The notes: generated by a model not told the origin, from the sequence alone. A DNA stretch of 64,000 nucleotides from a virus (IMGVR_UViG_3300044712_000786:128001-192000); one strand, 5' to 3'; numbered from the stretch's first letter, positions 2,178 through 29,619 are shown. Translations and numbers: made by a program.

Positions 2178-2271
2178 TGGCGCAAACGGAGGGATTTGAA
2201 CCCACATTAGGCGTTATCCAATTACGGTAGTTTCGTGCCCAAAGTTTAGGAAACTTTGCCGATACGTTTGC
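2178..2271 (-). ncRNA. tRNA-like RNA lacking a D arm, CCT (Arg) anticodon loop, enlarged variable region
   Basis: Acceptor GCAAACG/CGUUUGC-G-CCA, T arm GUGGG-UUCAAAU-CCCUC, stem AAAGU/ACUUU with loop UUCCUAA; no D stem. Confidence 0.65.
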
Positions 2272-4836: not shown

Positions 4837-4913
4837 TGGAGACGCAAGTTGGATTTGCACCAACGAATAGCAAGGTTGCAGCTTGCTGGTTTAGACTACT
4901 CACCCATTGCGTC
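4837..4913 (-). tRNA. tRNA-Cys(GCA)
   Basis: Anticodon arm GCAAG-CUGCAAC-CUUGC, CCA encoded. Confidence 0.9.
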
Positions 4914-4920
4914 CTGAAAA

Positions 4921-5919
4921 TTACTTCAAAACAAGAAGTTGCGTGCCAGCAACCAAATTTCGGTTGAGGCTAGTAGACTGGATAAAGACATGCCACTTGC
5001 CATGACTAGCAGGGTCTACTTGGATTTCGTAATCGGGCAGACCGAGCATATCTCGCGCATTAACGCCAGAATATACCTTCGCCGTTACTTTATCCTGAAT
5101 ACATACCTGTTTGTAAGCTTGAACCTTCTCGGGCTTAGTAATTTGGTAGTAAGCCGAACCTTTGACGTAAGGCTTTCCAGTCCAACTTTCTACGAAGCTC
5201 TTGATATCCTTCTTCTTACTAACAGGGAAAATCTCATATTGGTGAGTCTTTAGCTCATCCAAATTCCGTTTGACACTAGTTGTCGATAGGCTGCTAGCGT
5301 CAAGATTAAAAAGATTCTTTGTACTGCGAACTCCAGTGCTACGAGCCCTCATAAAGGAAGTCGTAACTGTAGTCATAACGTCACCGATATCGTTCATACC
5401 CTTGGCGGTAGTGTCCCAAGTCATTACATTACCGGCGGGGAACCCACAAGCTTTAGCTTGCTTAACTCCATATTCATTGGGGACCATTACGGACACGGTC
5501 CAATTATCCTTGAGTTGAGAAATCGCTTTCTTTAATTGAGGTTCCTTGTTCCGACTAGCATTCTCTTCGCCATCGGTAATAGCAATCAAAAGAAACGCAT
5601 GGTCTCCATAGAGTTGAGGCGTCTGCTCAAGGTCAGAGATTGCTTGCATCGTCCCATCGATAAGCTTGGTATTGCCATTAGTATAATAATGGTCTTTAAT
5701 CCTAGGGAGCCTCAATACATCCATATCGTATACTAGCGGCTCTACGCTGCTATTAAACAAATAAATTGAAACCCGTGTTTCTTGGTCAGTTTCTTTAGAG
5801 CTTTTGGCTAATTGAGCTACGTGAGTGTCAATGACTTTAATGGTTTCGTCCTTGATGCTGCTCATCGAACCGCTCGCATCTACAACCAAAGCTACGTGAT
5901 TGATAAGATTTTGAATCAT
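4921..5919 (-). CDS. von Willebrand factor A domain protein
   Basis: MIDAS DASGSM ... T ... ITDGEEN. Confidence 0.85.
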   Translation of the reverse strand: MIQNLINHVALVVDASGSMSSIKDETIKVIDTHVAQLAKSSKETDQETRVSIYLFNSSVEPLVYDMDVLRLPRIKDHYYTNGNTKLIDGTMQAISDLEQTPQLYGDHAFLLIAITDGEENASRNKEPQLKKAISQLKDNWTVSVMVPNEYGVKQAKACGFPAGNVMTWDTTAKGMNDIGDVMTTVTTSFMRARSTGVRSTKNLFNLDASSLSTTSVKRNLDELKTHQYEIFPVSKKKDIKSFVESWTGKPYVKGSAYYQITKPEKVQAYKQVCIQDKVTAKVYSGVNARDMLGLPDYEIQVDPASHGKWHVFIQSTSLNRNLVAGTQLLVLK

Positions 5920-5925
5920 ATCCCA

Positions 5926-5953
5926 ATTCTAAAAAGAATTTTTGAAAAGTCAA
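5926..5953 (-). promoter_or_regulatory. sigma70-like promoter
   Basis: TTGACT-N16-TAGAAT; same geometry recurs at 12378, 14193, 23246, 28046. Confidence 0.6.
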
Positions 5954-6176
5954 CGTTAAAAACCAAAGGGCTGACTAAGAAGCGCCCCGCTATTGGAGAC
6001 CCGATATCGTTGAAGTCTGCCTTCCCTTTCCCATACCCCTGACAATTGAGGGGCAACCCCAGTTAAATAATCCCTTCCCTCTAAAACAAATGTATCTAAA
6101 TCGGCTTGCCCCGTAGGAAGCGAGTGCAAACGATTCATATAATTACCTTGGGAGCCGCTGATATACATACTCTTTA

Positions 6177-6413
6177 TTACACCTTACAGGGGCATGTATC
6201 CTTTTCGGGATTAACCCCCTTACCACAAACTGGACAAACCCACCCCTTTTTAACGGCAAATGGATAAACGGGATGTATATCTTGAGCCAAGCCCCCAACT
6301 GTCGTATTATAACAGCTATAACACAAATTTTTTCCCTCAAAACAATACAAGGCCGAAGTGAGATTCCCGCAACGAGAACAGGCAAACTTAAATATACTAT
6401 CGTTATCTTTCAT
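6177..6413 (-). CDS. Cys-rich zinc-finger protein
   Basis: Multiple CxxC motifs. Confidence 0.6.
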   Translation of the reverse strand: MKDNDSIFKFACSRCGNLTSALYCFEGKNLCYSCYNTTVGGLAQDIHPVYPFAVKKGWVCPVCGKGVNPEKDTCPCKV

Positions 6414-6756
6414 ACAACTTAGCTAGACCATTTTTCAACAGTTCATCATTCAAGTTAGTAGAAGAACCATTAGAATCATAGTAAACTTCAGCTAGATAGC
6501 GCCCAAAGGCGTCTGCTTTGAAAGTTTGGATAACAACCAACTTATTCAAAACCGTATTAACTACGTAAGACTTACCTAGGAGGGCTCTTTGCTTATCCTC
6601 GGCGTTAGAACTCGTTAACTCCCAAGTATTTATGCGATTCAGCCGCAGACGAAGAAGCATCTTTATCTTAAATCCTACATCTACTTCCGCGTCTACCGTA
6701 TCGCCGTCTACTACATTAGTTATTAAAGCCTTGTATAAATATGCTGGTTGAACCAT
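6403..6756 (-). CDS. thermonuclease (SNase-like)
   Basis: VVDGDTV, LRLNRINTWE, DAFGRYLAEV, LLKNGLA. Confidence 0.85.
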   Translation of the reverse strand: MVQPAYLYKALITNVVDGDTVDAEVDVGFKIKMLLRLRLNRINTWELTSSNAEDKQRALLGKSYVVNTVLNKLVVIQTFKADAFGRYLAEVYYDSNGSSTNLNDELLKNGLAKLYER

Positions 6757-6764
6757 GCATAAAA

Positions 6765-6995
6765 TTACACGCGCAATGGGGCGAAACCCGTAAAATCTAA
6801 CCCATTATGCAATAACTCGTCCCAATAACCTTCAGAGTCTTTATAAATGATTCTCTTAGGGCCGAATCTATTAATGACTTCTTTAACTACCCATTCAGCA
6901 TCATTAGTAACGCTTATGTTTCCTAAATCCAAATCCTCAATATAAACGATATTAGCGGTATCGTTGACTACCTTGAAATCAGCATGGGGTTTCAT
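6765..6995 (-). CDS. hypothetical protein
   Basis: ORF track. Confidence 0.65.
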   Translation of the reverse strand: MKPHADFKVVNDTANIVYIEDLDLGNISVTNDAEWVVKEVINRFGPKRIIYKDSEGYWDELLHNGLDFTGFAPLRV

Positions 6996-7185
6996 TGGGA
7001 TAAATTTTCGCTCCGCTATGTTCCAAAATGTAAGCGGTATAACAGGGCACGCAAAGCTCTTTGTAATTCCAGATGGTATGAAAATTGTCGCCCGTTATGT
7101 TGTTTTCTACCCCACAATCAATCTTATACGAAGATACTTCATCCCTAGTATGGCAAACGTCGCATTCGAGAATAATGTGCTTCAT
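6979..7185 (-). CDS. hypothetical CxxC protein
   Basis: ORF track. Confidence 0.55.
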   Translation of the reverse strand: MKHIILECDVCHTRDEVSSYKIDCGVENNITGDNFHTIWNYKELCVPCYTAYILEHSGAKIYPNETPC

Positions 7186-7427
7186 ATCGTCTCAATATTA
7201 TTAGGAATAGGTCCAACTTCTCGACCAACTTGCTCGTTCCAATCTTTGTTTATTTCGTCTAATTTGTCCGCTAAAGCCCTGAGTAACCACGCAACAAAAC
7301 AACCGCCTTGATTAGGCGGGGGCCAATAATAAAAATATCCATCTACATCTTTTAGAAAATCGCCTATATAAGCCGTTTCAACGAATACTTGATAACAGCT
7401 ATCGGAATCTTTCTCAAGCCTTAACAT
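7182..7427 (-). CDS. hypothetical protein
   Basis: ORF track. Confidence 0.65.
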   Translation of the reverse strand: MLRLEKDSDSCYQVFVETAYIGDFLKDVDGYFYYWPPPNQGGCFVAWLLRALADKLDEINKDWNEQVGREVGPIPNNIETI

Positions 7428-7431
7428 AAAA

Positions 7432-7506
7432 TGGTAGCAGCAGAGGTACTCGAAACCTCAGGGAAAACAGCCTTATGAAAGCCGCCCGTCACCTAGACTT
7501 GCTGCC
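7432..7506 (-). tRNA. tRNA-Met/Ile2(CAT)
   Basis: Loop UUCAUAA, acceptor GGCAGCA/UGCUGCU-A-CCA. Confidence 0.75.
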
Positions 7507-7706
7507 AGTTTTTTCAGAGAGTTGTCTACTTGCTGCATCGCCCAATCTAGCTTAGACTCGTCCATTTTTTCAACAACGTCCTCTATACTAAGTTCTAAAT
7601 TCTTGTGAGAGTACATTCGTTTAAATACCATCTGATGCCCCTCGGGGAGTTGGCGCAACCCATTTAAAATAGTATCTCTCGCAAAACGCTGCAAAGATTC
7701 GTTCAT
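7473..7706 (-). CDS. hypothetical protein (3' end overlaps tRNA)
   Basis: ORF track. Confidence 0.6.
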   Translation of the reverse strand: MNESLQRFARDTILNGLRQLPEGHQMVFKRMYSHKNLELSIEDVVEKMDESKLDWAMQQVDNSLKKLAASLGDGRLS

Positions 7707-7811
7707 TACTCCAAGTCTACCAAATCTTTTTCCTCTGTCAATCCCTGATTTATCAGTTTTACAAAGGATTCCCTTAATTTCCTTCGGACCTTTTGATTAG
7801 CCTTTTTTTTA

Positions 7812-8072
7812 TTAAATTTTTTCTGAAGTCTCGCTTCCCTTCTCATCGTTTCCTCCTTTAATTTGGACTTCAATGGGATTATCCAAGAAAATAGTTTGCT
7901 TCTTCTTTTTACTTAGCCCTGAACGACGTTCATAAGCGACAATAAAAAGCCTGCCTTCATTATCTATTTTGAAGACAGGCTTAACTCTATCCTTGGCGAT
8001 AAGTTTCTTAAGATGATTCTTCACGCTTATATTATAGCGTGGAGCAGATATTTTGTCTACGGAACTATCCAA
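7812..8072 (-). CDS. hypothetical protein
   Basis: ORF track. Confidence 0.5.
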   Translation of the reverse strand: MDSSVDKISAPRYNISVKNHLKKLIAKDRVKPVFKIDNEGRLFIVAYERRSGLSKKKKQTIFLDNPIEVQIKGGNDEKGSETSEKI

Positions 8073-8506
8073 ACAGCATTAATTTTATCAAGCTTCTTAT
8101 TATAGCTATAGACAATGTTCGTCCAAGGGCCTACTTCATAAGACCCTACGGTAAAAGCATTTGAGCCAACGGGACGGCACCAGAATTTATATGTCCCGCT
8201 GGGAACGCTTTTGGCTAGCAAATTGACAAAAGTAAAATTAGTAATTGACTGCCCGTTAACCCTTAAGAACTGAAATGTCCCAGTGGTATTAGGCAGAGCA
8301 GGGTCTTCATCCAGAATTTGACCCGCTACCAAGTTTGTGGTAGTAACCGCTACAACATTAGTGCTCGAAACCCCAATATCATACCCGAGAACGGTATAAC
8401 TAGAATCTACATACTTCTCCCAACTTAATAGGGATTTAGAAGTAGCTGTTTGCGCAAACGCACTAAAACCAGCCAAAAGACAGACGGTAAATAGTAACTT
8501 TTTCAT
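8057..8506 (-). CDS. secreted beta-rich protein
   Basis: Signal peptide MKKLLFTVCLLAGFSAFA; Thr/Asn-rich. Confidence 0.7.
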   Translation of the reverse strand: MKKLLFTVCLLAGFSAFAQTATSKSLLSWEKYVDSSYTVLGYDIGVSSTNVVAVTTTNLVAGQILDEDPALPNTTGTFQFLRVNGQSITNFTFVNLLAKSVPSGTYKFWCRPVGSNAFTVGSYEVGPWTNIVYSYNKKLDKINAVWIVP

Positions 8507-8525
8507 AAACTTTATTACACTAAAA

Positions 8526-8600
8526 TGGTCCGGTAGTCTGGATTTGCACCAGAACAGTTCCCTTCACAGGGGAAGATGCTACATTACATCACGTACCGGA
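8526..8600 (-). tRNA. tRNA-His(GTG), U-1:A73 type
   Basis: UUCCC-CUGUGAA-GGGAA; 5' U pairs with A73. Confidence 0.85.
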
Positions 8601-8695
8601 TAAATCGGGAAGGAGTTATCAATTCCCCGCTGACTCAGTCGGCTTTTCAAGGGCCTTATATAGATGATAAGTCTAAGTTTCTGTATGCTAAAGCT

Positions 8696-16176: not shown

Positions 16177-16252
16177 TGGAGGCTCAGGTTGGAATTTCAC
16201 CAACGTCAGTCAAGTTAACGGCTTGATGCTCGAATGTCTGAGCTACTGAGCC
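16177..16252 (-). tRNA. tRNA-Asn(GTT), second copy
   Basis: UCAAG-CCGUUAA-CUUGA; U73. Confidence 0.8.
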
Positions 16253-16394
16253 AATATTAAATCTCGAATCCATCTTAAATGGACTACTTGGCTTTCAAGA
16301 TTTTTAAAAGCAATTACTACATCACGAGAAGTTAAATAATTCATCGGATGATAACAAAAATCATCCCTCACGCGCACTACCTGATATAGGTGTT

Positions 16395-16583
16395 TCATAA
16401 TTGTTCCCAATATAGTTCTTTGGGGTCCTTGGTCAATTCCATAATCCTCTCTAGGATTTCCTCCCTTGTCTTTCGTCTAGCTCGCCCCTTTTTGACCCCG
16501 TCCTTGGAGTTACTACAAATAGGGCACTTATCAGAATTATGCCGCTTGTTTTGATGTTTAGGGGGTTTACCGTAGGGTTTCAT
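16395..16583 (-). CDS. small basic protein
   Basis: MKPYG...CPIC...KGRARR. Confidence 0.6.
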   Translation of the reverse strand: MKPYGKPPKHQNKRHNSDKCPICSNSKDGVKKGRARRKTREEILERIMELTKDPKELYWEQL

Positions 16584-16756
16584 ACAGAAGCCTCTGCCCC
16601 CACTAGAGCCAAAGCTAAGCTTCCCACGGGCTCCCCAGCTTGCTTAATAACTCTTCTTAGATGGTCCGCTACCTCTTTACATGCTTCCTGCTCAGCGGCA
16701 GAAAGCTGAGAAATAAGACCTTTAATAATTAAAACAGTTTCTTGTTCACTTGTCAT
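16580..16756 (-). CDS. hypothetical protein (58 aa, not in ORF track)
   Basis: Manual translation MTSEQETVLIIKGLISQLSAAEQEACKEVADHLRRV... Confidence 0.55.
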   Translation of the reverse strand: MTSEQETVLIIKGLISQLSAAEQEACKEVADHLRRVIKQAGEPVGSLALALVGAEASV

Positions 16757-16760
16757 AAAA

Positions 16761-16836
16761 TGGTAGGCATGGCAGAAATTGCATCTGCATAAAACAATTT
16801 CGAAGATTGGTGCCTAATCTATTCGGCCACATGCCC
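16761..16836 (-). tRNA. tRNA-Arg(TCG)
   Basis: CAAU-CUUCGAA-AUUG, CCA. Confidence 0.85.
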
Positions 16837-16851
16837 ATAAAATTTAAAACG

Positions 16852-16958
16852 GGGATTTCACTAATGTTCCATTAAAAAGTGTGCTGCCAATTACACTACC
16901 GGGGCATAAGCGCCCCAGAGAGGACTCGAACCTCTACTTCCTTCATCATGTCTATCCC
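16852..16958 (-). ncRNA. YrlA-type Y-RNA-like RNA enclosing a circularly permuted tRNA domain
   Basis: Order T arm - acceptor 3' strand - GCUUAU loop - acceptor 5' strand - D arm, inside a GGGAUAGAC...AGUGAAAUCCCC stem. Confidence 0.7.
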
Positions 16959-16961
16959 TAT

Positions 16962-17044
16962 GGAGGATTTCACTAAACGGGACCGTCGCCCCTCGTTCTA
17001 CCCTCTTTCTCGCTTGTAAGGCGAGCGAGTAATAATCTATCTCC
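16962..17044 (-). ncRNA. paralogous Y-RNA-like scaffold carrying a UAC anticodon-like hairpin
   Basis: GGAGAUAGA...AGUGAAAUCCUCC; inner CUCGC-CUUACAA-GCGAG. Confidence 0.6.
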
Positions 17045-17056
17045 ATTTAGCTAAAG

Positions 17057-17131
17057 CATCCCAGACAGGAGTTGCACCCATATAAATCTTGGTTCGTAGC
17101 CAAGTGCCTAATCTATTCGCGCCACTGGGAT
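17057..17131 (-). tRNA. tRNA-Arg(ACG), CCA not encoded
   Basis: CUUGG-CUACGAA-CCAAG. Confidence 0.85.
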
Positions 17132-17139
17132 AAATCACA

Positions 17140-17204
17140 AGCCGCTATCGATGTTCCGCCCATAATAGCCAGTTATCAGGGCAATCAATAGAACACTAAC
17201 GGTT
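17140..17204 (-). ncRNA. hairpin-closed spacer RNA
   Basis: Nested stems AACCGUUA/UAGCGGCU, UGUUC/GAACA, GCCC/GGGC. Confidence 0.4.
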
Positions 17205-17223
17205 AAATATAAAACAATAAAAG

Positions 17224-17505
17224 TCATAATGGTTCATTAAACATCTTCTGAAGAGCTTCCAAAGTAATCTCTTGCCTCGAAATCTCGCGCCAATGAAGGT
17301 CGCTTATCGGTTCACTCTTATTACCGTAACCAGCTTGAGTTTCAATCTCAACTATGAAATACTTAGCTTTTGATTCGTCCGAACAAGCTCTTTCAATAGC
17401 TTTATCTAAAACTCCCCAGTGACCCCTTTCGACGTATTTATACAAGAAAACTACGGTGTCTTTGTCGCCTTGTATCTCGACCCGCTTGATGTTGATTAAG
17501 TCCAT
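17224..17505 (-). CDS. hypothetical protein
   Basis: ORF track. Confidence 0.6.
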   Translation of the reverse strand: MDLINIKRVEIQGDKDTVVFLYKYVERGHWGVLDKAIERACSDESKAKYFIVEIETQAGYGNKSEPISDLHWREISRQEITLEALQKMFNEPL

Positions 17506-17509
17506 AAAT

Positions 17510-17583
17510 TGGTTGCGGTTTGTGGAGTTACACCACCCCCCTAGCTTATGAGACTAGGATGCAATTACTTACACCTTCCCGCA
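17510..17583 (-). tRNA. tRNA-Met(CAT), initiator-like acceptor
   Basis: UGCGGG.../CCGCA-A-CCA; loop CUCAUAA; lacks the three G-C pairs of the anticodon stem. Confidence 0.7.
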
Positions 17584-17586
17584 AAT

Positions 17587-17675
17587 TGGTGCGAGCGGTA
17601 GGATTTCCACCTACGGCGTAGCTTTCGCTAGACGGCTTAAAAGGCCGTTTCCTTCGTGTCCTCGGTCACGCTCGC
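17587..17675 (-). tRNA. tRNA with TTT (Lys) anticodon and long variable arm
   Basis: ACGGC-CUUUUAA-GCCGU; V arm UAGC-GAAA-GCUA; 89 nt. Confidence 0.8.
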
Positions 17676-17680
17676 GTGTG

Positions 17681-17734
17681 CCCATCCTTGACTCGCGTCT
17701 TGTCTTCAACACCACCTTGTTAAGACGGGATGGG
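17681..17734 (-). ncRNA. 54-nt three-way-junction spacer RNA
   Basis: CCCAUCC/GGAUGGG closing stem, GUCUU/AAGAC and GAC-GCGA-GUC hairpins. Confidence 0.5.
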
Positions 17735-17735
17735 T

Positions 17736-18176
17736 TTAAATTAACGTATCATTAAAAATATCTGCCGTTAGGTAATCTGCCGCTATATTGAACTTTCCTT
17801 TTCTCTTAGCCTTTTCGATACGTAGAGAAATACCTGACTTAAAATCTTTTGCAAAACTAGACTTAATATAGTAACAGTTTTGATTCTCTGGACAATAGAC
17901 GGCAATCGCATCTATATCACTAAAATCAATTGTTTTAGCTTTCCAACCTTGGGTATTAGTAGAAATACTTCGTAGTGGAATAACTATTGAACCATTCACC
18001 AATCCGACATATTTTACTGATAATCTCGCTAACTTTCCATTTGCACTAATAGCTATAAGGTCAAAAGGTAAATGTTCAGAAATTGGCAATGCTACTTTAA
18101 TGCCTTTACGGTCTAAATCAGCGATTACTTGAATTAATCCAGTATCGCCCTTCTCTTTAGTTATGGCCTTTGTCAT
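17736..18176 (-). CDS. PD-(D/E)XK endonuclease (PDDEXK_5-like, putative homing endonuclease)
   Basis: KGDTG...DL..KG..VALP..EHLPFDLI...SVKY. Confidence 0.75.
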   Translation of the reverse strand: MTKAITKEKGDTGLIQVIADLDRKGIKVALPISEHLPFDLIAISANGKLARLSVKYVGLVNGSIVIPLRSISTNTQGWKAKTIDFSDIDAIAVYCPENQNCYYIKSSFAKDFKSGISLRIEKAKRKGKFNIAADYLTADIFNDTLI

Positions 18177-18233
18177 AACTATTATTACACCAGAATACGC
18201 AACTAGTGTAGTTTAATTTATATTAAATAATTA

Positions 18234-18308
18234 TGGGTCCCCCTCAGAGACTCGCACTCTGTTTCACTAGTTTACAGGACTAGGCATCACTATCAATGTT
18301 TAGGGGGC
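18234..18308 (-). tRNA. tRNA-Thr(TGT)
   Basis: CUAGU-CCUGUAA-ACUAG; G1.A72 mismatch. Confidence 0.8.
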
Positions 18309-18313
18309 AAAAT

Positions 18314-18400
18314 TGGTGCGTCGTGTGAGTAACGCTCTCACTCGCCCCCGAAGGGGAACGGGGTTACAGCCCGTCTAGCCTCTTTAGCCTCTACCGACGC
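18314..18400 (-). tRNA. tRNA-Tyr(GTA)
   Basis: ACGGG-CUGUAAC-CCCGU, long V arm, A73-CCA. Confidence 0.88.
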
Positions 18401-18409
18401 ATTAAAAAA

Positions 18410-18565
18410 TTAAGGTATAAGTAACAAATGATGATATTCAAGAACGTTTCGAATTGTCTGAGCTAAACTTAAACCGCACACGCCTTCCCGTTGACCCTCT
18501 TCCCACTCTTCGATTGTTTGTGCGATTAATTTAGTAATATCATCCCATGTATTTGGATTTTCCAT
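18410..18565 (-). CDS. hypothetical protein (51 aa, not in ORF track)
   Basis: Manual translation MENPNTWDDITKLIAQTIEEWEEGQREGVCGLSLAQTI... Confidence 0.5.
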   Translation of the reverse strand: MENPNTWDDITKLIAQTIEEWEEGQREGVCGLSLAQTIRNVLEYHHLLLIP

Positions 18566-18569
18566 AAAA

Positions 18570-18803
18570 TTAGTTAGAACCGGAAATCAGCCAACGGTCC
18601 TTTAATTCCTTAAACTTAGCTTTCATTGCAAATTCATCGTCTGGATAAGCGTGTCTAGCGGCAAGTAAAGCTAATTGGACGGTAAGCTTATGACGTAATT
18701 CGTCTAGGGTCCCATCCACTCTATAATGTGGAAACTCTCTTATCTCTTCATTAGTCAACAAACGGTCGTCGTCTGTTAATACCATGCTCATAGTTAACTT
18801 CAT
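18570..18803 (-). CDS. hypothetical protein
   Basis: ORF track. Confidence 0.6.
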   Translation of the reverse strand: MKLTMSMVLTDDDRLLTNEEIREFPHYRVDGTLDELRHKLTVQLALLAARHAYPDDEFAMKAKFKELKDRWLISGSN

Positions 18804-18806
18804 AAA

Positions 18807-19100
18807 CTAAGAATTTAAGGCTTTAATATGTTTTACTAACCACGAAGTATGAATAGTCTCAGAAGTAAAACCATTTTGCCATTTTACTATTGCATATTCT
18901 CCGTAACAATAGTGATTATCTTGGAGGTTTAAGTTTGTAACTTCGCCAGTTAAATTATTTTGATGAATTTCTCTATATTGCTCTTTATCATACTGCTCAC
19001 CATCATACAGCATAGAAGCCCACTTATGCTCTAATTTAACCGTGTCTCCCACTTGTAAACCAGAAGTTTTCATAGACCAGAACGGTTGTCTTGAAACCAC
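18807..19100 (-). CDS. hypothetical SH3/KOW-like protein
   Basis: LQVGDTVKL...GEV...AIVKW. Confidence 0.55.
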   Translation of the reverse strand: MVSRQPFWSMKTSGLQVGDTVKLEHKWASMLYDGEQYDKEQYREIHQNNLTGEVTNLNLQDNHYCYGEYAIVKWQNGFTSETIHTSWLVKHIKALNS

Positions 19101-19264
19101 TTAATAATCTGTATAACTTGAGGATTCTCGGAGTCCACACAATCAGGTAAGATACCTTGAGCTATAAGGAACCCCATAGAGCCCTTGCAATCTTCTTTGG
19201 AAGGAAAAGCCCCAACGAAGTCCTTAGTCGTTTCTTCTATTACCTGTTCTTGCAATGATTTCAT
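19070..19264 (-). CDS. hypothetical protein
   Basis: ORF track. Confidence 0.55.
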   Translation of the reverse strand: MKSLQEQVIEETTKDFVGAFPSKEDCKGSMGFLIAQGILPDCVDSENPQVIQIIKWFQDNRSGL

Positions 19265-19271
19265 ATTAAAT

Positions 19272-19338
19272 TGGTCGCCCTTGCGGGTCTCCCGCTTCTC
19301 CGCTCAATAGCGGTATCCTTAATTTAGACGATTGGGCG
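19272..19338 (-). pseudogene. degenerate tRNA (no assignable anticodon)
   Basis: ACCA end, Glu/Gln-like D arm, 6-nt anticodon loop, 4-nt T loop. Confidence 0.55.
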
Positions 19339-19368
19339 ATTAAATTGGTTTAGCGCTCTCCCATAAAT

Positions 19369-19436
19369 TGGAGCCCCATCGGATATTGCAATCCGCACGC
19401 TTGTTTACCGAACAAGACTAGGCACTTGCACAGGGC
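19369..19436 (-). tRNA. D-arm-reduced tRNA-Thr(GGT)
   Basis: 68 nt; CUUGU-UCGGUAA-ACAAG; no D stem. Confidence 0.65.
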
Positions 19437-19730
19437 TTACATAAACATTTTTCCTATAAGTCTAATTTCTAAAATACTCACATGGATAGTATTTCTAATA
19501 TCAGGTTGAACCATCAAGAAACGGCCTAAATGAAAAGAGGGTTCATCATAGAATCTGCTAATTTTATCCCAAAGTTGTGGAACAATGCACTTAATATTTA
19601 AAGATTTCATTTTTTATAGGGCTACCCAAAACTGATATATATAAAGGTAATCTAATATCAATTACTTCCCTAAGATGAACATAGATTATTCTAGGCAGTT
19701 GAAAACATGAAGTAGTAAGACTGACCTTTT

Positions 19731-21020
19731 TCATTTATTCAACTCAAATCCATGAATCTTAAACCTATGTTGAACTTCATCCCAAACCGCATTCAATACA
19801 GCGGGGTCTTCATGAACTTTCCCGTTATGAACATCAGGATGAATAGCCTTAATTCTCTCCATGTATTTTTCCTTAGCCAGCTTTAAAACATCTTTATGTT
19901 CCATTGGACGGCTCCAAAAACGATGACGCTTGTTAGGCCCCGCCCGAAGTCTCCCCTGAATCGTCTTTCCATTCCTGCCATACATATGGCTAGGCTGGTT
20001 CATATCGTTCTTTTTCAGTCCTAAGTATCTGAGCATCATGGTAATACTGGCAGTCTTGGGATTAATCTTATTAACTTCTATCGGTTTTTCATCATCCCCG
20101 TATTCCTTACTTTCCTTTTTCTTGAAGGATTCTACGGCAACCGAATCAGAAAGCTTGCTTTTCCTAATAGACTCGATATATTCACCTAAAGACTTAATAG
20201 AGTCTTGAGCGTCATCTATGGCAGACTTCATTTCTTGGAGAGAATCTATAGGAGCCGTTTCGAACATAGCTTCGAATTTTTTGGCATCTACAGATAAAAG
20301 ATTATCGAGAAATGCATTCGTTTTTATTAAAAACCTCTTAATAGAATACGTCCCATTAAATAGACGAAGCCTATTTGTCTTATCAGCGTCAACGCGAATG
20401 TCCTTCTCTCTAACTGTCACCGCTATTAATTTTCTCGCCTCATCAATAGAACATCGATTTGTGCTAATAGTGTTAGCAAGTTTTACTTGTTCTTCTTTGG
20501 GAATACCCACGAGTAAAGAGCAAATATAATAACTAAGCCGATTTCCTTCGGAAACCATAGGGCCAGCCAACTTTTGAACATCAGGCTCCAAAGTAAGAAT
20601 TTTAGCGACTAAACACACCCAACTTTGAGACCTACCTAATTTTTCTCCGATTTCGCGCTGGCCTACCTCTAACTCTAGAAGGTGCTCGATAGATTGGGCA
20701 ACCTCTAGGGGGGTAAGAGTATCTCTTTGTAAATTCGTAGTAAGAGACAAGAATAACTGCTCTACTTCCGTTTCTACACGTTTTACGACAGCATCTATAT
20801 TCTTGTAACCTAGCTCCTTACATGCGGCAAGACGCTTCTTTCCGTCAATTAATTCGAAAAATTCTCCTTCGTCATCTATAGGTTTTACTATGATAGGAAC
20901 ATTCAAACCATATTCATCTATGCTGTGTATCAATCCATTTAGAGAATCCTGATTAATGAATTGGCAAGGATTATTTGCAAATTGGCGAATGTTATCGATT
21001 TGGATAGACTTGATGTCCAT
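19731..21020 (-). CDS. ParB/Spo0J-family protein with C-terminal J-domain-like segment
   Basis: GLNVPIIV..ELIDGKKR, ENLQR-like TNLQRDTLTPLE, HTH; C-terminal IKAIHPD. Confidence 0.8.
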   Translation of the reverse strand: MDIKSIQIDNIRQFANNPCQFINQDSLNGLIHSIDEYGLNVPIIVKPIDDEGEFFELIDGKKRLAACKELGYKNIDAVVKRVETEVEQLFLSLTTNLQRDTLTPLEVAQSIEHLLELEVGQREIGEKLGRSQSWVCLVAKILTLEPDVQKLAGPMVSEGNRLSYYICSLLVGIPKEEQVKLANTISTNRCSIDEARKLIAVTVREKDIRVDADKTNRLRLFNGTYSIKRFLIKTNAFLDNLLSVDAKKFEAMFETAPIDSLQEMKSAIDDAQDSIKSLGEYIESIRKSKLSDSVAVESFKKKESKEYGDDEKPIEVNKINPKTASITMMLRYLGLKKNDMNQPSHMYGRNGKTIQGRLRAGPNKRHRFWSRPMEHKDVLKLAKEKYMERIKAIHPDVHNGKVHEDPAVLNAVWDEVQHRFKIHGFELNK

Positions 21021-21062
21021 TGTTTAAAAATATCAGAAATTTTACGGAACACAAGGAAAAAT

Positions 21063-21140
21063 TGGTGCGGTACGTCGGACTTGCACCGACCTTATTTCAG
21101 TTTGGAAGACTGACGCCATAACTATCTAGGCGACTACCGC
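21063..21140 (-). tRNA. tRNA-Gly(TCC)
   Basis: UCAGU-CUUCCAA-ACUGA, CCA. Confidence 0.88.
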
Positions 21141-21147
21141 ATTAAAT

Positions 21148-21221
21148 TGGTAGGGCATTTCGGTAACGCTCCGAGACACTAACTTTGTAGGAGTTAGTCA
21201 ACACCTTGGTTGCCATGCCCT
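21148..21221 (-). tRNA. tRNA-Val(TAC)
   Basis: UAACU-CCUACAA-AGUUA, A73-CCA. Confidence 0.8.
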
Positions 21222-21504
21222 AATGTAAATCAAAAGAAAAATAGGCTTTAGAACCAACTTCTTTATAAGCCTCTATTGGAAGAAAGTAAACGCCCAACAA
21301 TTTAGCAATAACTAAGCCTAAGTCTTTCTTATTGACTCTAAAACAAAAGGATTGATTATCATTAGTGCGTTCATTCCAATCTACGAATTCTAGCGATGGA
21401 ATTCTTGCTAAGCATCTTTTTATATCAGAGTGACATCCGCCCCATCCATAATCACAACCATCACTCCAACTATCTAACTTATAATCAGATTTAAATACTT
21501 TCAT
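21220..21504 (-). CDS. hypothetical protein
   Basis: ORF track; start moved. Confidence 0.55.
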   Translation of the reverse strand: MKVFKSDYKLDSWSDGCDYGWGGCHSDIKRCLARIPSLEFVDWNERTNDNQSFCFRVNKKDLGLVIAKLLGVYFLPIEAYKEVGSKAYFSFDLH

Positions 21505-21507
21505 AAA

Positions 21508-21583
21508 TGGTATCCCCGACTGGACTCCCACCAGTAATCTTCTCCTTAGAAGGGAGTGGCTTTAGTAATTTAGCTACGGGGAC
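21508..21583 (-). tRNA. tRNA-Arg(TCT)
   Basis: CUCC-CUUCUAA-GGAG, CCA. Confidence 0.88.
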
Positions 21584-21591
21584 TTAAAAAA

Positions 21592-21859
21592 ACTAGAGAT
21601 TGCTTTTACGCTAAAGACCAGAACATTGTACTTCTGTCTGCCGCTTCTTACTCGGTAGCCCTTAGCCGACTTTACGGCTAGCTCCACGCTTTCATCCCTT
21701 CCGCGAAGGCTCTTACATCCTATTATTAGCTACTAACAGGGTAGGAGAAATCCCTCGTATCGGATTTCGGGGTCATCCTGCGGTTAATTCCGCTCAGGTT
21801 CGTGCGAGAAGGACGAGTCACTTATCATGGATGGCTGTTTCTGAGCCTACCACTCTAGT
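21592..21859 (-). ncRNA. ~270-nt structured RNA with ends resembling 23S rRNA H43/H44
   Basis: CUAGAG/CUCUAG closing stem; GGCUCAGAAACAGCCAUCC and GCGUAAAAGC; several internal hairpins; no ORF. Confidence 0.7.
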
Positions 21860-22052
21860 TTAAAATTGTATGGTATTAGTTCAGGCTTTTACTGCTCTAT
21901 AATGATACGCTCCACCCATAACGGTTAAGCATGAAGCTGAGCTTTCTGTTCTCGAACAAATTGTGCCCGAAGTGAGGACTCTTACCCCAATTTACGTTGC
22001 ATCCCTCGGGCTAAGTGCAACCTGCTTTCTGTTCACGCAACATATGGAAGAT

Positions 22053-22128
22053 TGGTGGACACAGGCGGGTAACGCTCCCGCTTCTCACTCCTTGCAAGGG
22101 AGGCACATCACTTTTCTGTCACTGGCCC
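22053..22128 (-). tRNA. tRNA-Ala(TGC)
   Basis: CUCC-CUUGCAA-GGAG; G3:U70. Confidence 0.85.
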
Positions 22129-22142
22129 AAAATTATTGTTAC

Positions 22143-22171
22143 TTGCGCGGGGAATAACCGTGTAATATAAT
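22143..22171 (+). promoter_or_regulatory. promoter for the antisense HNH gene
   Basis: TTGCGC-N17-TATAAT. Confidence 0.5.
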
Positions 22172-22173
22172 AT

Positions 22174-22545
22174 ATGAGGCATAGCCCTATAAAATTACTT
22201 TGCGCGTTTTGTAAAGAATCTTTTACTCGACCACTGTCTAAGTTAAAAAATAGTAAATCAAAAATATACTTTTGCTCTCGTCATTGTAAAGACGAGGCTC
22301 AAAAAATAAAGAATAAATTTACCGATATCCACCCATCGCATTACGGAACAGGCTCTTGCAAAGAAACATATAGACGCATTGCTCTAGAAAACCTTCCTCA
22401 TAAATGCAATCGTTGTGGTTACAATAAATTACTAGGCGTATTAGCAGTACATCATAAAGATAGAGACAAATCAAATAATCTAGTTAGTAACTTAGAAATT
22501 CTTTGCCATAACTGTCATGCCGAAGAACATATTCTAAACGATTAA
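22174..22545 (+). CDS. HNH endonuclease with zinc-binding N-terminus
   Basis: CxxC, YFCSRHC, VHHKDRDKSNN...NLEILCHNCHAEEH. Confidence 0.85.
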   Translation: MRHSPIKLLCAFCKESFTRPLSKLKNSKSKIYFCSRHCKDEAQKIKNKFTDIHPSHYGTGSCKETYRRIALENLPHKCNRCGYNKLLGVLAVHHKDRDKSNNLVSNLEILCHNCHAEEHILND

Positions 22546-22548
22546 AAT

Positions 22549-22641
22549 TGGTACTCCCCGTAGGTAACGCTCCTACACACGGCACTCATCTAGTGCGACT
22601 TGGGCTTATAAGGCCCACGATTCTCTTTGAATTAGGGGAGC
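22549..22641 (-). tRNA. tRNA with TAT (Ile) anticodon and long variable arm
   Basis: UGGGC-CUUAUAA-GCCCA; V arm GCACU-AGAUG-AGUGC; 93 nt. Confidence 0.8.
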
Positions 22642-22650
22642 AAAAAATTA

Positions 22651-22710
22651 CCATCAGGCCATGGTTTACATTACCATCTTTAAGACTTACGGTTTGTATC
22701 GTCCTGATGG
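22651..22710 (-). ncRNA. hairpin-closed spacer RNA
   Basis: CCAUCAGG/CCUGAUGG 8-bp terminal stem; contains GUAAGUCUUAAAG. Confidence 0.45.
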
Positions 22711-22716
22711 ACAAAT

Positions 22717-22790
22717 TGGAGCACTATATCGGTACTGCCCCGACTTATCCAGATTGGCAATCTGATGCATCACTTTTATGCTAATAGTGC
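22717..22790 (-). tRNA. tRNA-Gly(GCC)
   Basis: CAGA-UUGCCAA-UCUG, U73-CCA. Confidence 0.88.
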
Positions 22791-22796
22791 TGAAAA

Positions 22797-22870
22797 TGGT
22801 CCGATATGTCAGAATCGCACTGACCCCACAAGTTCCCAAAACTTGCATGCTACTTCAACACCTATATCGG
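22797..22870 (-). tRNA. tRNA-Pro(TGG)
   Basis: CAAGU-UUUGGGA-ACUUG; C1-G72, A73. Confidence 0.88.
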
Positions 22871-22879
22871 AGTGTAAAT

Positions 22880-22963
22880 TGGTAGGCGTAGAGAGACTTG
22901 CACTCCCAAGGCTTCATGGTCCTAAGCCATGCGACTCTGCTATTCGTCCTTAACCATACGCCC
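22880..22963 (-). tRNA. tRNA-Leu(TAG)
   Basis: CAUGG-CUUAGGA-CCAUG; short V region, long D region. Confidence 0.82.
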
Positions 22964-25876: not shown

Positions 25877-27352
25877 TCACACAGTCACTTTGTTATAGCG
25901 TTCCTGACCAATAACTTCCATCATCGTGTCATAAGGGGTAAAGTTCTTACCCGATAGGACGGTTTTAAAGATAGAGGGAGAGAAACCACTAACTAAGGTT
26001 GCTCCGCGCTCATCCATTTCAACGGGCGATTGACCCGTATTAACTCTAGCGTCCAAGTTCCAAAATACAACATGAGGAACCTTGTATCCAGCCTTATCAA
26101 ACTTTTGCTTGATAGTCTCGAAATTACTCTTGCTATTATTGTCGCAAGCCTTATCGAACTGCATATCAGACAGGATATACAATACGTCAGGCATTTCCTT
26201 CTTAGGAACCTTATTCGCTACAGCAGCATTCAGAATCAAATCAAACGCAGCCTGTAAGTTAGTGTTTCCACCCCAAGGGGCACGCATTACGTTCAAAACC
26301 CGCTCAGTTAAAGAACTTCCTTGCACTTGCAATAAGCTAGGGCTAGCCTCGAAAGTAATGAAGTGATTCTTGAAGAAACCCTCAATTCTTTCTGCCATAT
26401 AGATGCCTAGACCAACACTAACCAACATCGGCTGTCCAGCCATAGAACCCGAAACGTCTACCAAGCAGAGACCATTGTGAGGATTCTCTTCTAAGTAGTT
26501 AGGCAAAGCCCTCCACTGCAACTCAACAGTAGGGTCTACTCCAGACTGAGCCTTTTGGACTAGCTCATGAGGATATAGCACAGACGCATTAATCTTAGCT
26601 TCGCCCGTAGCTACCTTACCAAGGTAAGCAGTATAGCCAATCGGGTCATGCTTGCCGAAAGCCTTTCGATAAATCATGCTGGCGCGAGAAGGAACAGACT
26701 CATAGTCAATCTCGTTCCAATTCTTGGAAGACATCTTTACTTCAACCACGTTAAGGTATTTCCTTAAGGAAGTAAGCATCTTGCGATAAGTCTTAGGAGA
26801 CATATCCAAAGCCTTCATAAGCTTCTTAGCAATAAGAGCCTCCGAAGAACCCTCAGAAGGCATCCACTTAGCCAACAGGGAAATAGCTTCCCCCTTCTTC
26901 ATAAGCTTCAAATCAGCTTTAACTTGCTTAACTAAGAACGAGGTAACTTCATCCTCTACCTTAGTGCCAAATAAGCAAAAAAGGTCATCAAAACGACCAA
27001 ATTCGGCTACATTAGCCAAGTTTCGAACAACAATTTTGGGATTGTTATTCGCCAACCAGCTTAGCATAGTGCGAAAAGCCTTGCGTTGTCCTTGACCCCC
27101 GCGAACATCACGGAAGTAAAAGGCAATCTTAGTAGCTAGCAACTTATCTTCGTTGAAAGCGTTGGAGAATAAGCTCAGAACATTAGCTTCGGGGGTATTT
27201 CGCAATGCGCCACCCAAGGCAAAGAAATCAACCAAGCTGCTCTTAGAAGTCGAAGGAGTGATAGCTCCATTTTCGGTTTGAGTCATAGTGTGAATCTTAG
27301 TAACGGTCTTAGGTGCCTTACTGTTCTTAATAGCTTTAATTAGTTTGCTCAT
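25877..27352 (-). CDS. DUF2828-type TROVE/Ro60-like protein with C-terminal vWA domain
   Basis: TENGA..LVDFF..., FYFRDVRGGQGQR, LLAKWMP, KINASVLYPHELV, MIDAS DVSGSM, ILSDMQFD, FWNL. Confidence 0.85.
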   Translation of the reverse strand: MSKLIKAIKNSKAPKTVTKIHTMTQTENGAITPSTSKSSLVDFFALGGALRNTPEANVLSLFSNAFNEDKLLATKIAFYFRDVRGGQGQRKAFRTMLSWLANNNPKIVVRNLANVAEFGRFDDLFCLFGTKVEDEVTSFLVKQVKADLKLMKKGEAISLLAKWMPSEGSSEALIAKKLMKALDMSPKTYRKMLTSLRKYLNVVEVKMSSKNWNEIDYESVPSRASMIYRKAFGKHDPIGYTAYLGKVATGEAKINASVLYPHELVQKAQSGVDPTVELQWRALPNYLEENPHNGLCLVDVSGSMAGQPMLVSVGLGIYMAERIEGFFKNHFITFEASPSLLQVQGSSLTERVLNVMRAPWGGNTNLQAAFDLILNAAVANKVPKKEMPDVLYILSDMQFDKACDNNSKSNFETIKQKFDKAGYKVPHVVFWNLDARVNTGQSPVEMDERGATLVSGFSPSIFKTVLSGKNFTPYDTMMEVIGQERYNKVTV

Positions 27353-28073: not shown

Positions 28074-28240
28074 GGATTACGGATGTCGAACATACTTACT
28101 TCTATAACGAATTCATTTCTTTTGACAAGAAAAGTATCTTCGTTTTTAACTCCAACGACTTCCCCCGCCCAATCCCCTTCGGGGTCAACAACTTTTACGA
28201 GTTTTCCCAACATGCGGGAATTCGCCTGATTTTTATTCAT
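28070..28240 (-). CDS. hypothetical protein (56 aa, not in ORF track)
   Basis: Manual translation MNKNQANSRMLGKLVKVVDPEGDWAGEVVGV... Confidence 0.5.
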   Translation of the reverse strand: MNKNQANSRMLGKLVKVVDPEGDWAGEVVGVKNEDTFLVKRNEFVIEVSMFDIRNP

Positions 28241-29550
28241 CAGACGTTTTTACACGCTTTTTCTGTATCTAGTAGCCAATTTTTATCTTCGGGAGTAGGT
28301 CCCTTAGAGGTTACTAAGACGGGCGTTTCCAAATAGTTAGCTATAAAACTAATTATATCTGTATTACCCAACTCAACATATTTGGGTTTACTACCATTCA
28401 TTCTCTCGGTAAGGTGGCTTTGATAAGCAATATTGGTAGTAGGAGACGAATGAAGCTCCCACTCAACCTTATCATAATAGCTGAGACATATCTTCCAACT
28501 CTTCTTTAATGAAAGCTTATCTAAATGAGAAATAGCCAAGTAGTCTATCCCCCCATTTACCTCCATACAGTAAGCTAGTAGATTTAAGTCCAGCCAACCG
28601 ACTCTAAATCCACCTTGAAACTCATTTTTCTTGTTAAAATCATCGGGCAAAATATCCGTAAGCTGTTCATCTTCAGTAACTAACGGACCAGCGCCATGCC
28701 GAGTTGTATAAGCCCTCGTAATTCCTATTGTTTTCTTAGGATATGTCCAATCGCATCCCTTCAAAATCTCTTCCGCATTCTTAGAGGTAACAGTAGTCCA
28801 AGTAGTATGAGGAAAGAACCCAAAGTTTTCGTCTATTCCTATCCCTTGTGCCGCTTCGAATATAGGATGTTCGGAAGTTTTGACTAACAAGCCTGACATT
28901 TCATCATCAAGCAAAACAACGCTATTGGCAACGGTTTTATAATTACTTATTAAATCCTCTAAAGACAACTTGAAAGTATTGAAATTCTTATCATTTTTAC
29001 TAACCTTAGAAGCTAGCTCGAACATCCTAGACCTAACTCCTATCAGCTTCTCCATTAGTAAAGTGGGACTCTTAATATCCTTGAACCTCAAAACGAGATT
29101 GGGGTTGCTAAGAAAGTCTTGCATAGTGGCACCAATACCCATGCCGCAAGAACCGTGTCTTCCATCCCCCCGACTATTCTCTAAAATCCTATTATAAGCT
29201 TTATGAAAAGGGGTTGTTATCAAAGCCTCTTCATGAATAAACATTCTCTTGAAGCAATCGGTAATACCCAATTCTTCTAGCTTTTGATTTTCTACCAACA
29301 AGCCAACTGGATTAATTAATACATGTTTTGAAAGCAGGGTCCTAGTTCCAGCTACTAAAGTCCCGCTTCCAAATTGAGAAAAAACATGCGTTTTACCATC
29401 TGATAAAACAACCCTATGAGCACATTGGCTTCCCCCACTATATCTAACTACTAAATTAGACTTGTATTTGCGGACTAGGGAATCTACGAAAGTTCCCTTG
29501 CCACAATCGCCAAATCCACAATCTACCGTTATAAAAGCACAATTAGCCAT
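28240..29550 (-). CDS. purA: adenylosuccinate synthetase-like protein (divergent PurA family)
   Basis: GFGDCGKG, VRYSGG, FEAAQG, TTWT, YTTRHGAGP, FRVGWLD; start moved to MANCAF. Confidence 0.8.
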   Translation of the reverse strand: MANCAFITVDCGFGDCGKGTFVDSLVRKYKSNLVVRYSGGSQCAHRVVLSDGKTHVFSQFGSGTLVAGTRTLLSKHVLINPVGLLVENQKLEELGITDCFKRMFIHEEALITTPFHKAYNRILENSRGDGRHGSCGMGIGATMQDFLSNPNLVLRFKDIKSPTLLMEKLIGVRSRMFELASKVSKNDKNFNTFKLSLEDLISNYKTVANSVVLLDDEMSGLLVKTSEHPIFEAAQGIGIDENFGFFPHTTWTTVTSKNAEEILKGCDWTYPKKTIGITRAYTTRHGAGPLVTEDEQLTDILPDDFNKKNEFQGGFRVGWLDLNLLAYCMEVNGGIDYLAISHLDKLSLKKSWKICLSYYDKVEWELHSSPTTNIAYQSHLTERMNGSKPKYVELGNTDIISFIANYLETPVLVTSKGPTPEDKNWLLDTEKACKNV

Positions 29551-29555
29551 ATTTT

Positions 29556-29591
29556 TAAAAAAGGGCGGGTCTCTTTCGAAACCCGCCCCCA
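29556..29591 (-). terminator. intrinsic terminator between vWA and purA-like genes
   Basis: GGGCGGGUUUC-GAAA-GAGACCCGCCC-UUUUUU. Confidence 0.75.
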
Positions 29592-29619
29592 CCAACATGC
29601 ACAACTAACCCAACCTCTA

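Follow-up and report, generated by a model that had tools for sequence, protein, structure and literature searches.

A 20-amino-acid phage tRNA set with A18 and G55 in place of the G18 and U55 of the elbow

The tRNA genes of the window

The stretch of DNA analysed here (IMGVR_UViG_3300044712_000786:128001-192000; 64,000 nucleotides, hereafter the window) represents bases 128001-192000 of the complete genome of an uncultured phage, which measures 202,704 bases and has direct terminal repeats. Between positions 4837 and 22963, its minus strand carries 35 cloverleaf tRNA genes for all 20 amino acids, identified with a structure-based finder followed by hand curation, every motif being verified by string search. 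In 34 of the 35, residue 55 of the T-loop is G, and the D-loops of these tRNAs possess A18 in place of G18 (the register is ambiguous in tRNA-His). A sequence-only reading of the same DNA had reported some 35 tRNAs covering all 20 amino acids with nearly none canonical, and this description stands; the loops are as it described them, save that its listing lacked the canonical tRNA(CAU) at 7432-7506 and missed the change of the partner at position 18.

The structure-based finder returned 25 hits in the first 25 kb and none in three shuffles, and these shuffled controls exclude chance as the source of the hits. Default tools miss the majority of the genes: ARAGORN detects 16 tRNAs and Rfam, at its gathering score, 13. 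Standard finders thus under-count tRNAs, with 16 of 35 found here. All 35 genes possess the four stems and a 7-nt anticodon loop, CCA is encoded in 34, and the identity bases are mostly correct for the isotype (U73 in Cys, G73 in Ser, G3-U70 in Ala). Nearly all codon boxes are served by the set. The genes are as follows:

4837-4913, minus strand: tRNA-Cys(GCA); A18/G55, U54-A58, U73
7432-7506, minus strand: tRNA(CAU), sole canonical member; G18G19, U55; not initiator-like
8526-8599, minus strand: tRNA-His(GTG); G55, D-loop register ambiguous, U-1:A73
8901-8984, minus strand: tRNA-Leu(TAA); A18/G55, short variable arm, enlarged D-arm
8992-9069, minus strand: tRNA-Leu(CAA); A18/G55, short variable arm
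9706-9791, minus strand: tRNA-Ser(GGA); A18/G55, G54-G58
9793-9878, minus strand: tRNA-Ser(CGA); A18/G55, G54-G58
9883-9974, minus strand: tRNA-Ser(TGA); A18/G55, A54-U58
10462-10551, minus strand: tRNA-Ser(GCT); A18/G55, G54-G58
11265-11339, minus strand: tRNA-Ile(GAT); A18/G55, swapped A19-U56, C33
11346-11420, minus strand: tRNA-Phe(GAA); A18/G55
11520-11594, minus strand: tRNA-Glu(TTC), copy a; A18/G55
11691-11765, minus strand: tRNA-Glu(TTC), copy b; A18/G55, A54-U58
12022-12100, minus strand: tRNA-Lys(CTT); A18/G55
12638-12713, minus strand: tRNA-Gln(CTG); A18/G55
13438-13513, minus strand: tRNA-Glu(CTC); A18/G55, C54-A58
14231-14308, minus strand: tRNA-Gln(TTG); A18/G55
14390-14464, minus strand: tRNA-Asp(GTC); A18/G55
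14946-15020, minus strand: tRNA-Trp(CCA); A18/G55
16094-16167, minus strand: tRNA-Asn(GTT), copy a; A18/G55, A54-U58
16177-16252, minus strand: tRNA-Asn(GTT), copy b; A18/G55, swapped U19-A56, C33, U73
16761-16836, minus strand: tRNA-Arg(TCG); A18/G55
17056-17131, minus strand: tRNA-Arg(ACG); A18/G55, CCA not encoded
17510-17584, minus strand: tRNA-Met(CAT); A18/G55, swapped A19-U56, weak acceptor stem
17587-17675, minus strand: tRNA-Lys(TTT); long variable arm, Leu-like body, A18/G55, swapped C19-G56
18234-18308, minus strand: tRNA-Thr(TGT); A18/G55, C33
18314-18400, minus strand: tRNA-Tyr(GTA); A18/G55, A54-U58
21063-21140, minus strand: tRNA-Gly(TCC); A18/G55
21148-21221, minus strand: tRNA-Val(TAC); A18/G55, A54-U58, C33
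21508-21583, minus strand: tRNA-Arg(TCT); A18/G55, swapped C19-G56
22053-22128, minus strand: tRNA-Ala(TGC); G3-U70, A18/G55, A54-U58
22549-22641, minus strand: tRNA-Ile(TAT); long variable arm, A18/G55, A54-U58
22717-22790, minus strand: tRNA-Gly(GCC); A18/G55, G54-G58
22797-22870, minus strand: tRNA-Pro(TGG); A18/G55
22880-22963, minus strand: tRNA-Leu(TAG); A18/G55, short variable arm, enlarged D-arm

The set lacks an initiator tRNA, so the phage still depends on a host tRNA; the canonical tRNA(CAU) at 7432 was considered for this role and rejected, as its stems do not fit. A further canonical tRNA, Leu(TAA), lies outside the window at genome position 85127. There is no sign of a recoded genetic code, since translation table 11 yields normal genes and there is no suppressor tRNA.

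The genome encodes a terminase, a portal, lambda-type tail genes, RIIA, a class II ribonucleotide reductase and DnaB. Its regions upstream of genes are AT-rich and lack a Shine-Dalgarno signal, which is at most a pointer to a group of hosts that do without it. The phage has no close cultured relative, and no host could be assigned: the terminase is too distant from those of cultured phages (only ~25% identity), and the PurA and ribonucleotide reductase matches are uninformative. With regard to gene organization, the Anabaena trn operon (PMC8421152) is likewise a compact, nearly complete spare tRNA set; the paper describing it mentions no change of the T-loop, G18 or U55, and the set described here, unlike that operon, lies in a complete phage genome.

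Elbow positions

G18 and U55 are textbook invariants of tRNA. The canonical signature (G18G19 with U54-U55-C56) is replaced by A18/G55 in 34 of the 35 window tRNAs, the exception being tRNA(CAU), with a GG D-loop and a TTC T-loop. With positions 18 and 19 placed by hand, residues 19 and 56 are complementary in 35/35 tRNAs, and residue 57 is a purine. This complementarity extends to the five tRNAs in which position 56 is not C, each of which carries the complement at position 19 (A19-U56 twice, C19-G56 twice and U19-A56 once). Position pair 54:58 is U-A in 23 tRNAs, A-U in seven, G-G in four and C-A in one, such that U54 is absent from 12 of the 35. The A54 loops in Glu, Asn, Tyr, Val, Ala and Ile-TAT and the three Ser loops are as the sequence-only reading gave them; the fourth Ser tRNA (GCT, 10462) adds a further G54/G55/G58 loop. 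Because A18 partners G55, 19:56 stays Watson-Crick and 54:58 co-varies, the elbow is, as judged from the genes, rebuilt and not lost.

These changes also bear on the idea that the genes are decaying pseudogenes or non-decoding look-alikes. The low ARAGORN and Rfam scores, a few stem mismatches, C33 in four of the 35 genes (U33 in the other 31) and degenerate genes at 10559, 12903, 13067, 19272 and 19369 would be expected of decay. The compensatory changes at 18/55, 19/56 and 54/58, the intact stems, the encoded CCA and the mostly isotype-correct identity bases are not, and therefore point to selection on the fold; we consider decay scarcely credible. C33 replaces the near-universal U33 in five genes of the cluster as a whole (11265, 16177, 18234, 21148 and 19369, minus strand), the last of them outside the 35.

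Survey of phage and cellular tRNAs

The window table was placed by hand, and the survey of other phages served as its blind test: two motif scans of viral contigs yielded 1579 non-redundant tRNAs, in which D-loop position was the sole guide to residues 18 and 19. Because G55 motifs served as seeds for the scans, the overall share of G55 is inflated; the covariation is unaffected. Among tRNAs with C56, those with U55 carry GG in 888 cases and AG in five, and those with G55 carry GG in two cases and AG in 432. Among tRNAs without C56, the predicted 18/19 dinucleotide occurs in 73 of 86. G55 is found in all 20 isotypes, and its fraction across arrays forms a continuum from near 0 to 100%.

Five phages with terminases 42-63% identical to that of the present phage carry G55 in 21/27, 23/35, 28/30, 8/9 and 39/43 tRNAs, i.e., 66-93% as measured with G55-seeded patterns. 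Allowing for this ascertainment, a high share of G55 looks like a trait of the lineage. The arrays of five cultured phages (14-29 tRNAs) have U55 throughout and no G55, and Arthrobacter phage Amigo possesses a single A18/G55 tRNA, a tRNA-Tyr. One of the related phages (L454, in genome G003) carries at ~7080-7155 a U55 tRNA whose anticodon is CUA (amber). When set against the canonical elongator tRNA (Rfam RF00005) and large phage arrays, the window set thus has in common the cloverleaf, the 7-nt anticodon and T-loops, purine 57, the paired 19:56, the encoded CCA, the mostly isotype-correct identity bases and the arrangement as a one-strand cluster among small open reading frames (ORFs); it differs in its A18/G55 (34/35) and in the replacement of U54-A58 in 12 tRNAs.

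The trait is confined neither to this phage nor to phages, as cells have it in their tRNA sets too. Two Saccharibacteria bins, with 38-41 Rfam tRNA hits, have A18/G55 tRNAs as the sole ones detected for Cys, Trp and Tyr (bin G032) and for Phe, Trp and His (bin G033), although these bins are incomplete and a canonical copy could be missing from them. As these are the only tRNAs detected for several amino acids, the A18/G55 design very probably decodes. A Verrucomicrobiaceae bin combines a dispersed core set that is almost entirely canonical with a clustered array that is mostly G55. G55 is not the norm in the cellular bins checked, so that within these bins the finding which the sequence-only reading had named as refuting it does not occur. 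The near-perfect covariation, its presence in every isotype and its use in sole detected tRNAs of small bacteria imply that the invariant G18/U55 is a choice between two solutions.

The non-decoding tRNA mimics, of which there are five in this genome, retain U55, as do six tRNA-like elements in the related phages. The TTC of the mimics at 2178, 14579 and 16852 had been noted previously from the sequence and was found again here. These three elements are:

2178-2271, minus strand: tRNA mimic retaining acceptor stem, CCA and TTC loop; a long hairpin occupies the place of the D-arm
14579-14730, minus strand: tRNA mimic bearing G18G19 and TTC and lacking CCA; a larger domain in place of the anticodon arm
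16847-16960, minus strand: YrlA-type permuted tRNA mimic with T-arm, closed acceptor hairpin and D-arm; GG, TTC

Structural model of the A18/G55 elbow

In tRNA, pseudouridine 55 is the partner of residue 18, which intercalates between residues 57 and 58, and the 19:56 pair presents a flat face that is contacted by the ribosome and other elbow binders (PMC4810234). The T-loops of FMN and cobalamin riboswitches have the sequence YGNRA, and the base which intercalates into them is nearly always an A, whose bond is to the sugar edge of the position-2 G (10.1101/2022.12.26.521914). A YGNRA T-loop is present in 23 of the 34 G55 tRNAs (22 with U54-A58 and one with C54-A58), the other 11 being A54-U58 or G54-G58 variants. 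By analogy with the riboswitch structures, A18 would intercalate between 57 and 58 and bond to G55 at its sugar edge, preserving both the L-shape and the exposed 19:56 face, and pseudouridine 55 would not be needed. The two modules resemble each other in the G at loop position 2, the purine at position 4, U or C at position 1 with A at position 5, and A as the intercalator. They differ in that the receptor in the window is a tRNA D-loop, that position 3 forms the 19:56 pair, and that A54-U58 and G54-G58 versions occur; the geometry is extrapolated. As for the latter version, library selections by the Steinberg laboratory are said to have returned G54-G58 in functional suppressors. Taken together, these comparisons make it highly probable that the genes encode functional elongator tRNAs that use an alternative design of the elbow.

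The sequence-only reading had proposed that the set moved away from elbow recognition by the host. With respect to modification this is sound, as the TruB substrate motif requires U54-U55 (PMC7912444) and the targets of TruB and TrmA/TrmFO are lost; as a general statement it is incomplete, given an elbow rebuilt as A18-G55 with the exposed 19:56 pair kept. Evasion of T-box RNAs or of the ribosome is unlikely because both read this exposed pair, which stays paired (PMC4810234).

The loss of modification targets could itself be the advantage: the tRNAs would work, and an A18-G55 elbow stable without TruB, TrmA/TrmFO and TrmH would allow a large pulse of phage tRNA to mature without host enzymes. 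Beyond the TruB motif, the absence of U54 from 12 of the 35 tRNAs, the encoded CCA in 34 of 35, the lack of a TruB of the phage's own, and the inclusion of Ile(UAU) and Arg(UCG) tRNAs agree with such independence. The last two tRNAs avoid a need for TilS and TadA. Against this, TruB is present in the Saccharibacteria bin G032 with A18/G55 core tRNAs and in the Verrucomicrobiaceae bin with its G55 array, and cultured phages with 14-29 tRNAs are all U55. We regard maturation without host enzymes as an unlikely reason for the change. The 20-amino-acid set in one genome offers a ready panel to learn which enzymes really need U55, and a possible source of tRNA scaffolds independent of TruB or TrmA.

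Origin of the set

In order to trace the origin of the set, the nearest U55 relative of each window tRNA was sought from its stems and discriminator base alone. The amino acid is shared with that relative in 10.3 of 25 cases (1.4 by chance) and, with the data pooled, in 83 of 200 (10 by chance). In tRNA-Asp, 34 of 35 stem and discriminator positions are identical to those of the canonical G18/U55 Asp of Bacillus phage MrDarsey. Isotype identity is thus kept between the window tRNAs and their U55 relatives, and by this comparison the swap was therefore made isotype by isotype, with two changes each; recruitment of all tRNAs from a single G55 ancestor through anticodon change is rejected on the same grounds.

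This origin bears on a near-neutral explanation, by which the two elbows are equally good and A18/G55 became fixed in the lineage through compensatory drift and the inheritance or movement of whole arrays. Such a course would fit the 0-100% continuum of G55 fractions among arrays, the use of A18/G55 by cells in a minority of their tRNAs, and the presence of the same HNH endonuclease family beside the G55-rich arrays of other phages and of the Verrucomicrobiaceae bin. It would, however, require two substitutions in each of ~30 separately descended isotypes, all in one direction, and the mimics in the same array keep U55. Drift of this kind seems rather improbable to us.

Possible reasons for the conversion

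A defence nuclease, already suggested from the sequence, is a plausible driver. CbCash, a Schlafen effector of type III CRISPR, cleaves 28 Escherichia coli tRNAs, for the most part immediately 5' of U55 in the T-loop, and a single mutation at U54 or at U55 suffices to abolish this (PMC13462974); the passages on these mutants do not name U55G. The residue that CbCash requires is G in 34 of 35 window tRNAs. The swap would thus remove the base read by broad T-loop nucleases of host defence, of which CbCash is the type example. Such a nuclease attacks most tRNA types through a single conserved motif, and phage translation would therefore be sustained only if almost every tRNA were converted, one isotype after another. 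The retention of U55 in the mimics is in line with a pressure that acts on decoding tRNAs.

Several observations weigh against this account. Host prediction gave no tie to a Cash-bearing host. A second type of CbCash site, ahead of a UC motif, lies in certain anticodon loops (PMC13462974), and window tRNAs with U33-C34 keep this motif. A host tRNA is still needed for initiation. Most phage arrays are mixed, a mixture that a pure escape model does not require, and free-standing cells use A18/G55 in part of their tRNA set. The G55 fractions of the related phages are biased upward by the seeded patterns through which these phages were found, some of the mimics came from an Rfam model biased towards TTC, and G55 is present in several degenerate tRNA-like genes of the window. 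On balance, escape from nucleases that require U54/U55, such as CbCash, is a driver that we favour only tentatively, at somewhat less than an even chance.

The nuclease could also belong to the phage, destroying host tRNAs which the resistant set then replaces. The set is broad enough for this, with 20 amino acids and nearly all codon boxes, and many small ORFs belong to no family. Yet a Schlafen domain was found neither in this phage nor in the five relatives, no tRNase family is among the top Pfam families (up to 25 per list) for ~165 ORFs, and the only protein common to several G55-rich arrays is the HNH endonuclease. In addition, no initiator tRNA is supplied, and the nuclease would also attack the TTC RNAs of the phage itself. 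An offensive role of this kind is very unlikely.

Escape from a host nuclease has parallels among phage tRNAs that resist nucleases (van den Berg 2023, PMC10264068; rescue from PARIS and retrons, PMC11464382, PMC11555353). There, too, the change reportedly lies at a site read by a defence nuclease, namely in the anticodon loop, and concerns one tRNA or a small number of them; here the core of a whole set is altered and resistance is presumed. In its most extended form, the proposal would be that a clade of 170-210 kb phages carries a near-whole 20-amino-acid set on a riboswitch-type A18-G55 elbow that resists Cash/Schlafen-type nucleases, with canonical-elbow mimics as decoys, the putative bait of the sequence-only reading, i.e., a natural nuclease-proof and near-orthogonal set; in this full form it is doubtful. 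The CbCash authors, in their 2026 report (PMC13462974), leave open whether phage tRNAs are targeted, and the escape of phage tRNAs from T-loop-cutting Schlafen defences now becomes directly testable. Our literature search, which did not extend to subscription papers, found no description of A18/G55 in natural tRNAs. What is new in this window is the near-total conversion of a 20-amino-acid set, its standing as a lineage habit, the isotype-wise origin, the contrast with the mimics and a named nuclease.

Unusual tRNA genes and neighbouring elements

Variable arms are short in all three Leu tRNAs, two of which have an enlarged D-arm similar to the Leu D-arms of related phages, and long in Lys(TTT) and Ile(TAT). 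The nearest canonical relative of the tRNA with the Lys(UUU) anticodon at 17587-17675 is a Leu(TAA) tRNA (29/35 stem positions); to judge from its body, this tRNA could accept Leu and insert it at Lys codons. An ATG lies within 9 bases of the tRNA 3' end in 15 of the 35 genes, often as the start of a small ORF, and tRNA processing may generate the mRNA ends there. Two Thr-like genes outside the 35 have in common a D-arm of reduced size and a T-loop of 6 nt closed by a 5-bp stem:

13067-13134, minus strand: atypical gene resembling tRNA-Thr(CGT); D-arm reduced, T-loop of 6 nt and G55 type
19369-19436, minus strand: atypical gene resembling tRNA-Thr(GGT); C33, D-arm reduced, T-loop of 6 nt and G55 type

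Three further tRNA-like genes bear CCA and have shrunken or scrambled arms (19272-19339, 10559-10650 and 12903-12990, minus strand), the first with a 4-nt anticodon loop and a tiny T-loop.

The YrlA-type element at 16847-16960 aligns over its full length to RF02553, with a permuted T-arm, a closed acceptor hairpin and the D-arm inside the closing stem, and scores 22.1 bits, under the gathering score of 69. Adjoining the array is a DUF2828/DUF7788 protein (25877-27352, minus strand), which is RNA-binding according to PHROGs; the array of Bacillus phage MrDarsey is also flanked by a DUF2828 gene. A comparison with solved Ro structures, made in search of a Ro60/Rsr partner, gave no sequence match for this protein; it is a possible partner of the YrlA-like RNA.

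The HNH endonuclease (L007:7205-7843, minus strand) lies just before the window and has homologues beside the tRNA arrays of four other phages and of the Verrucomicrobiaceae bin, whose G55-rich array, next to the same family, provides a bacterial parallel. It was considered as a gene tied to G55-rich arrays and set aside, since the family also adjoins canonical arrays of cultured phages. Searches of this phage for TruB, a CCA-adding enzyme and RtcB found none, and a 391-aa protein at 24283 gave no usable Atlas match. Within the tRNA cluster, positions 15062-15273 hold four copies of a 27-nt repeat with spacings of 58, 61 and 66, resembling a CRISPR-like or hairpin array, and structured non-coding elements with closing stems are present at 21590-21861 and 14470-14575 (minus strand), with no Rfam family at gathering score. 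Finally, a divergent adenylosuccinate synthetase is encoded at 28240-29604 (minus strand; best matches ~42-44%), and a long sugar-modification cluster with glycosyltransferases, a C-methyltransferase, an epimerase and a DegT aminotransferase occupies 43318-63340 on the plus strand.

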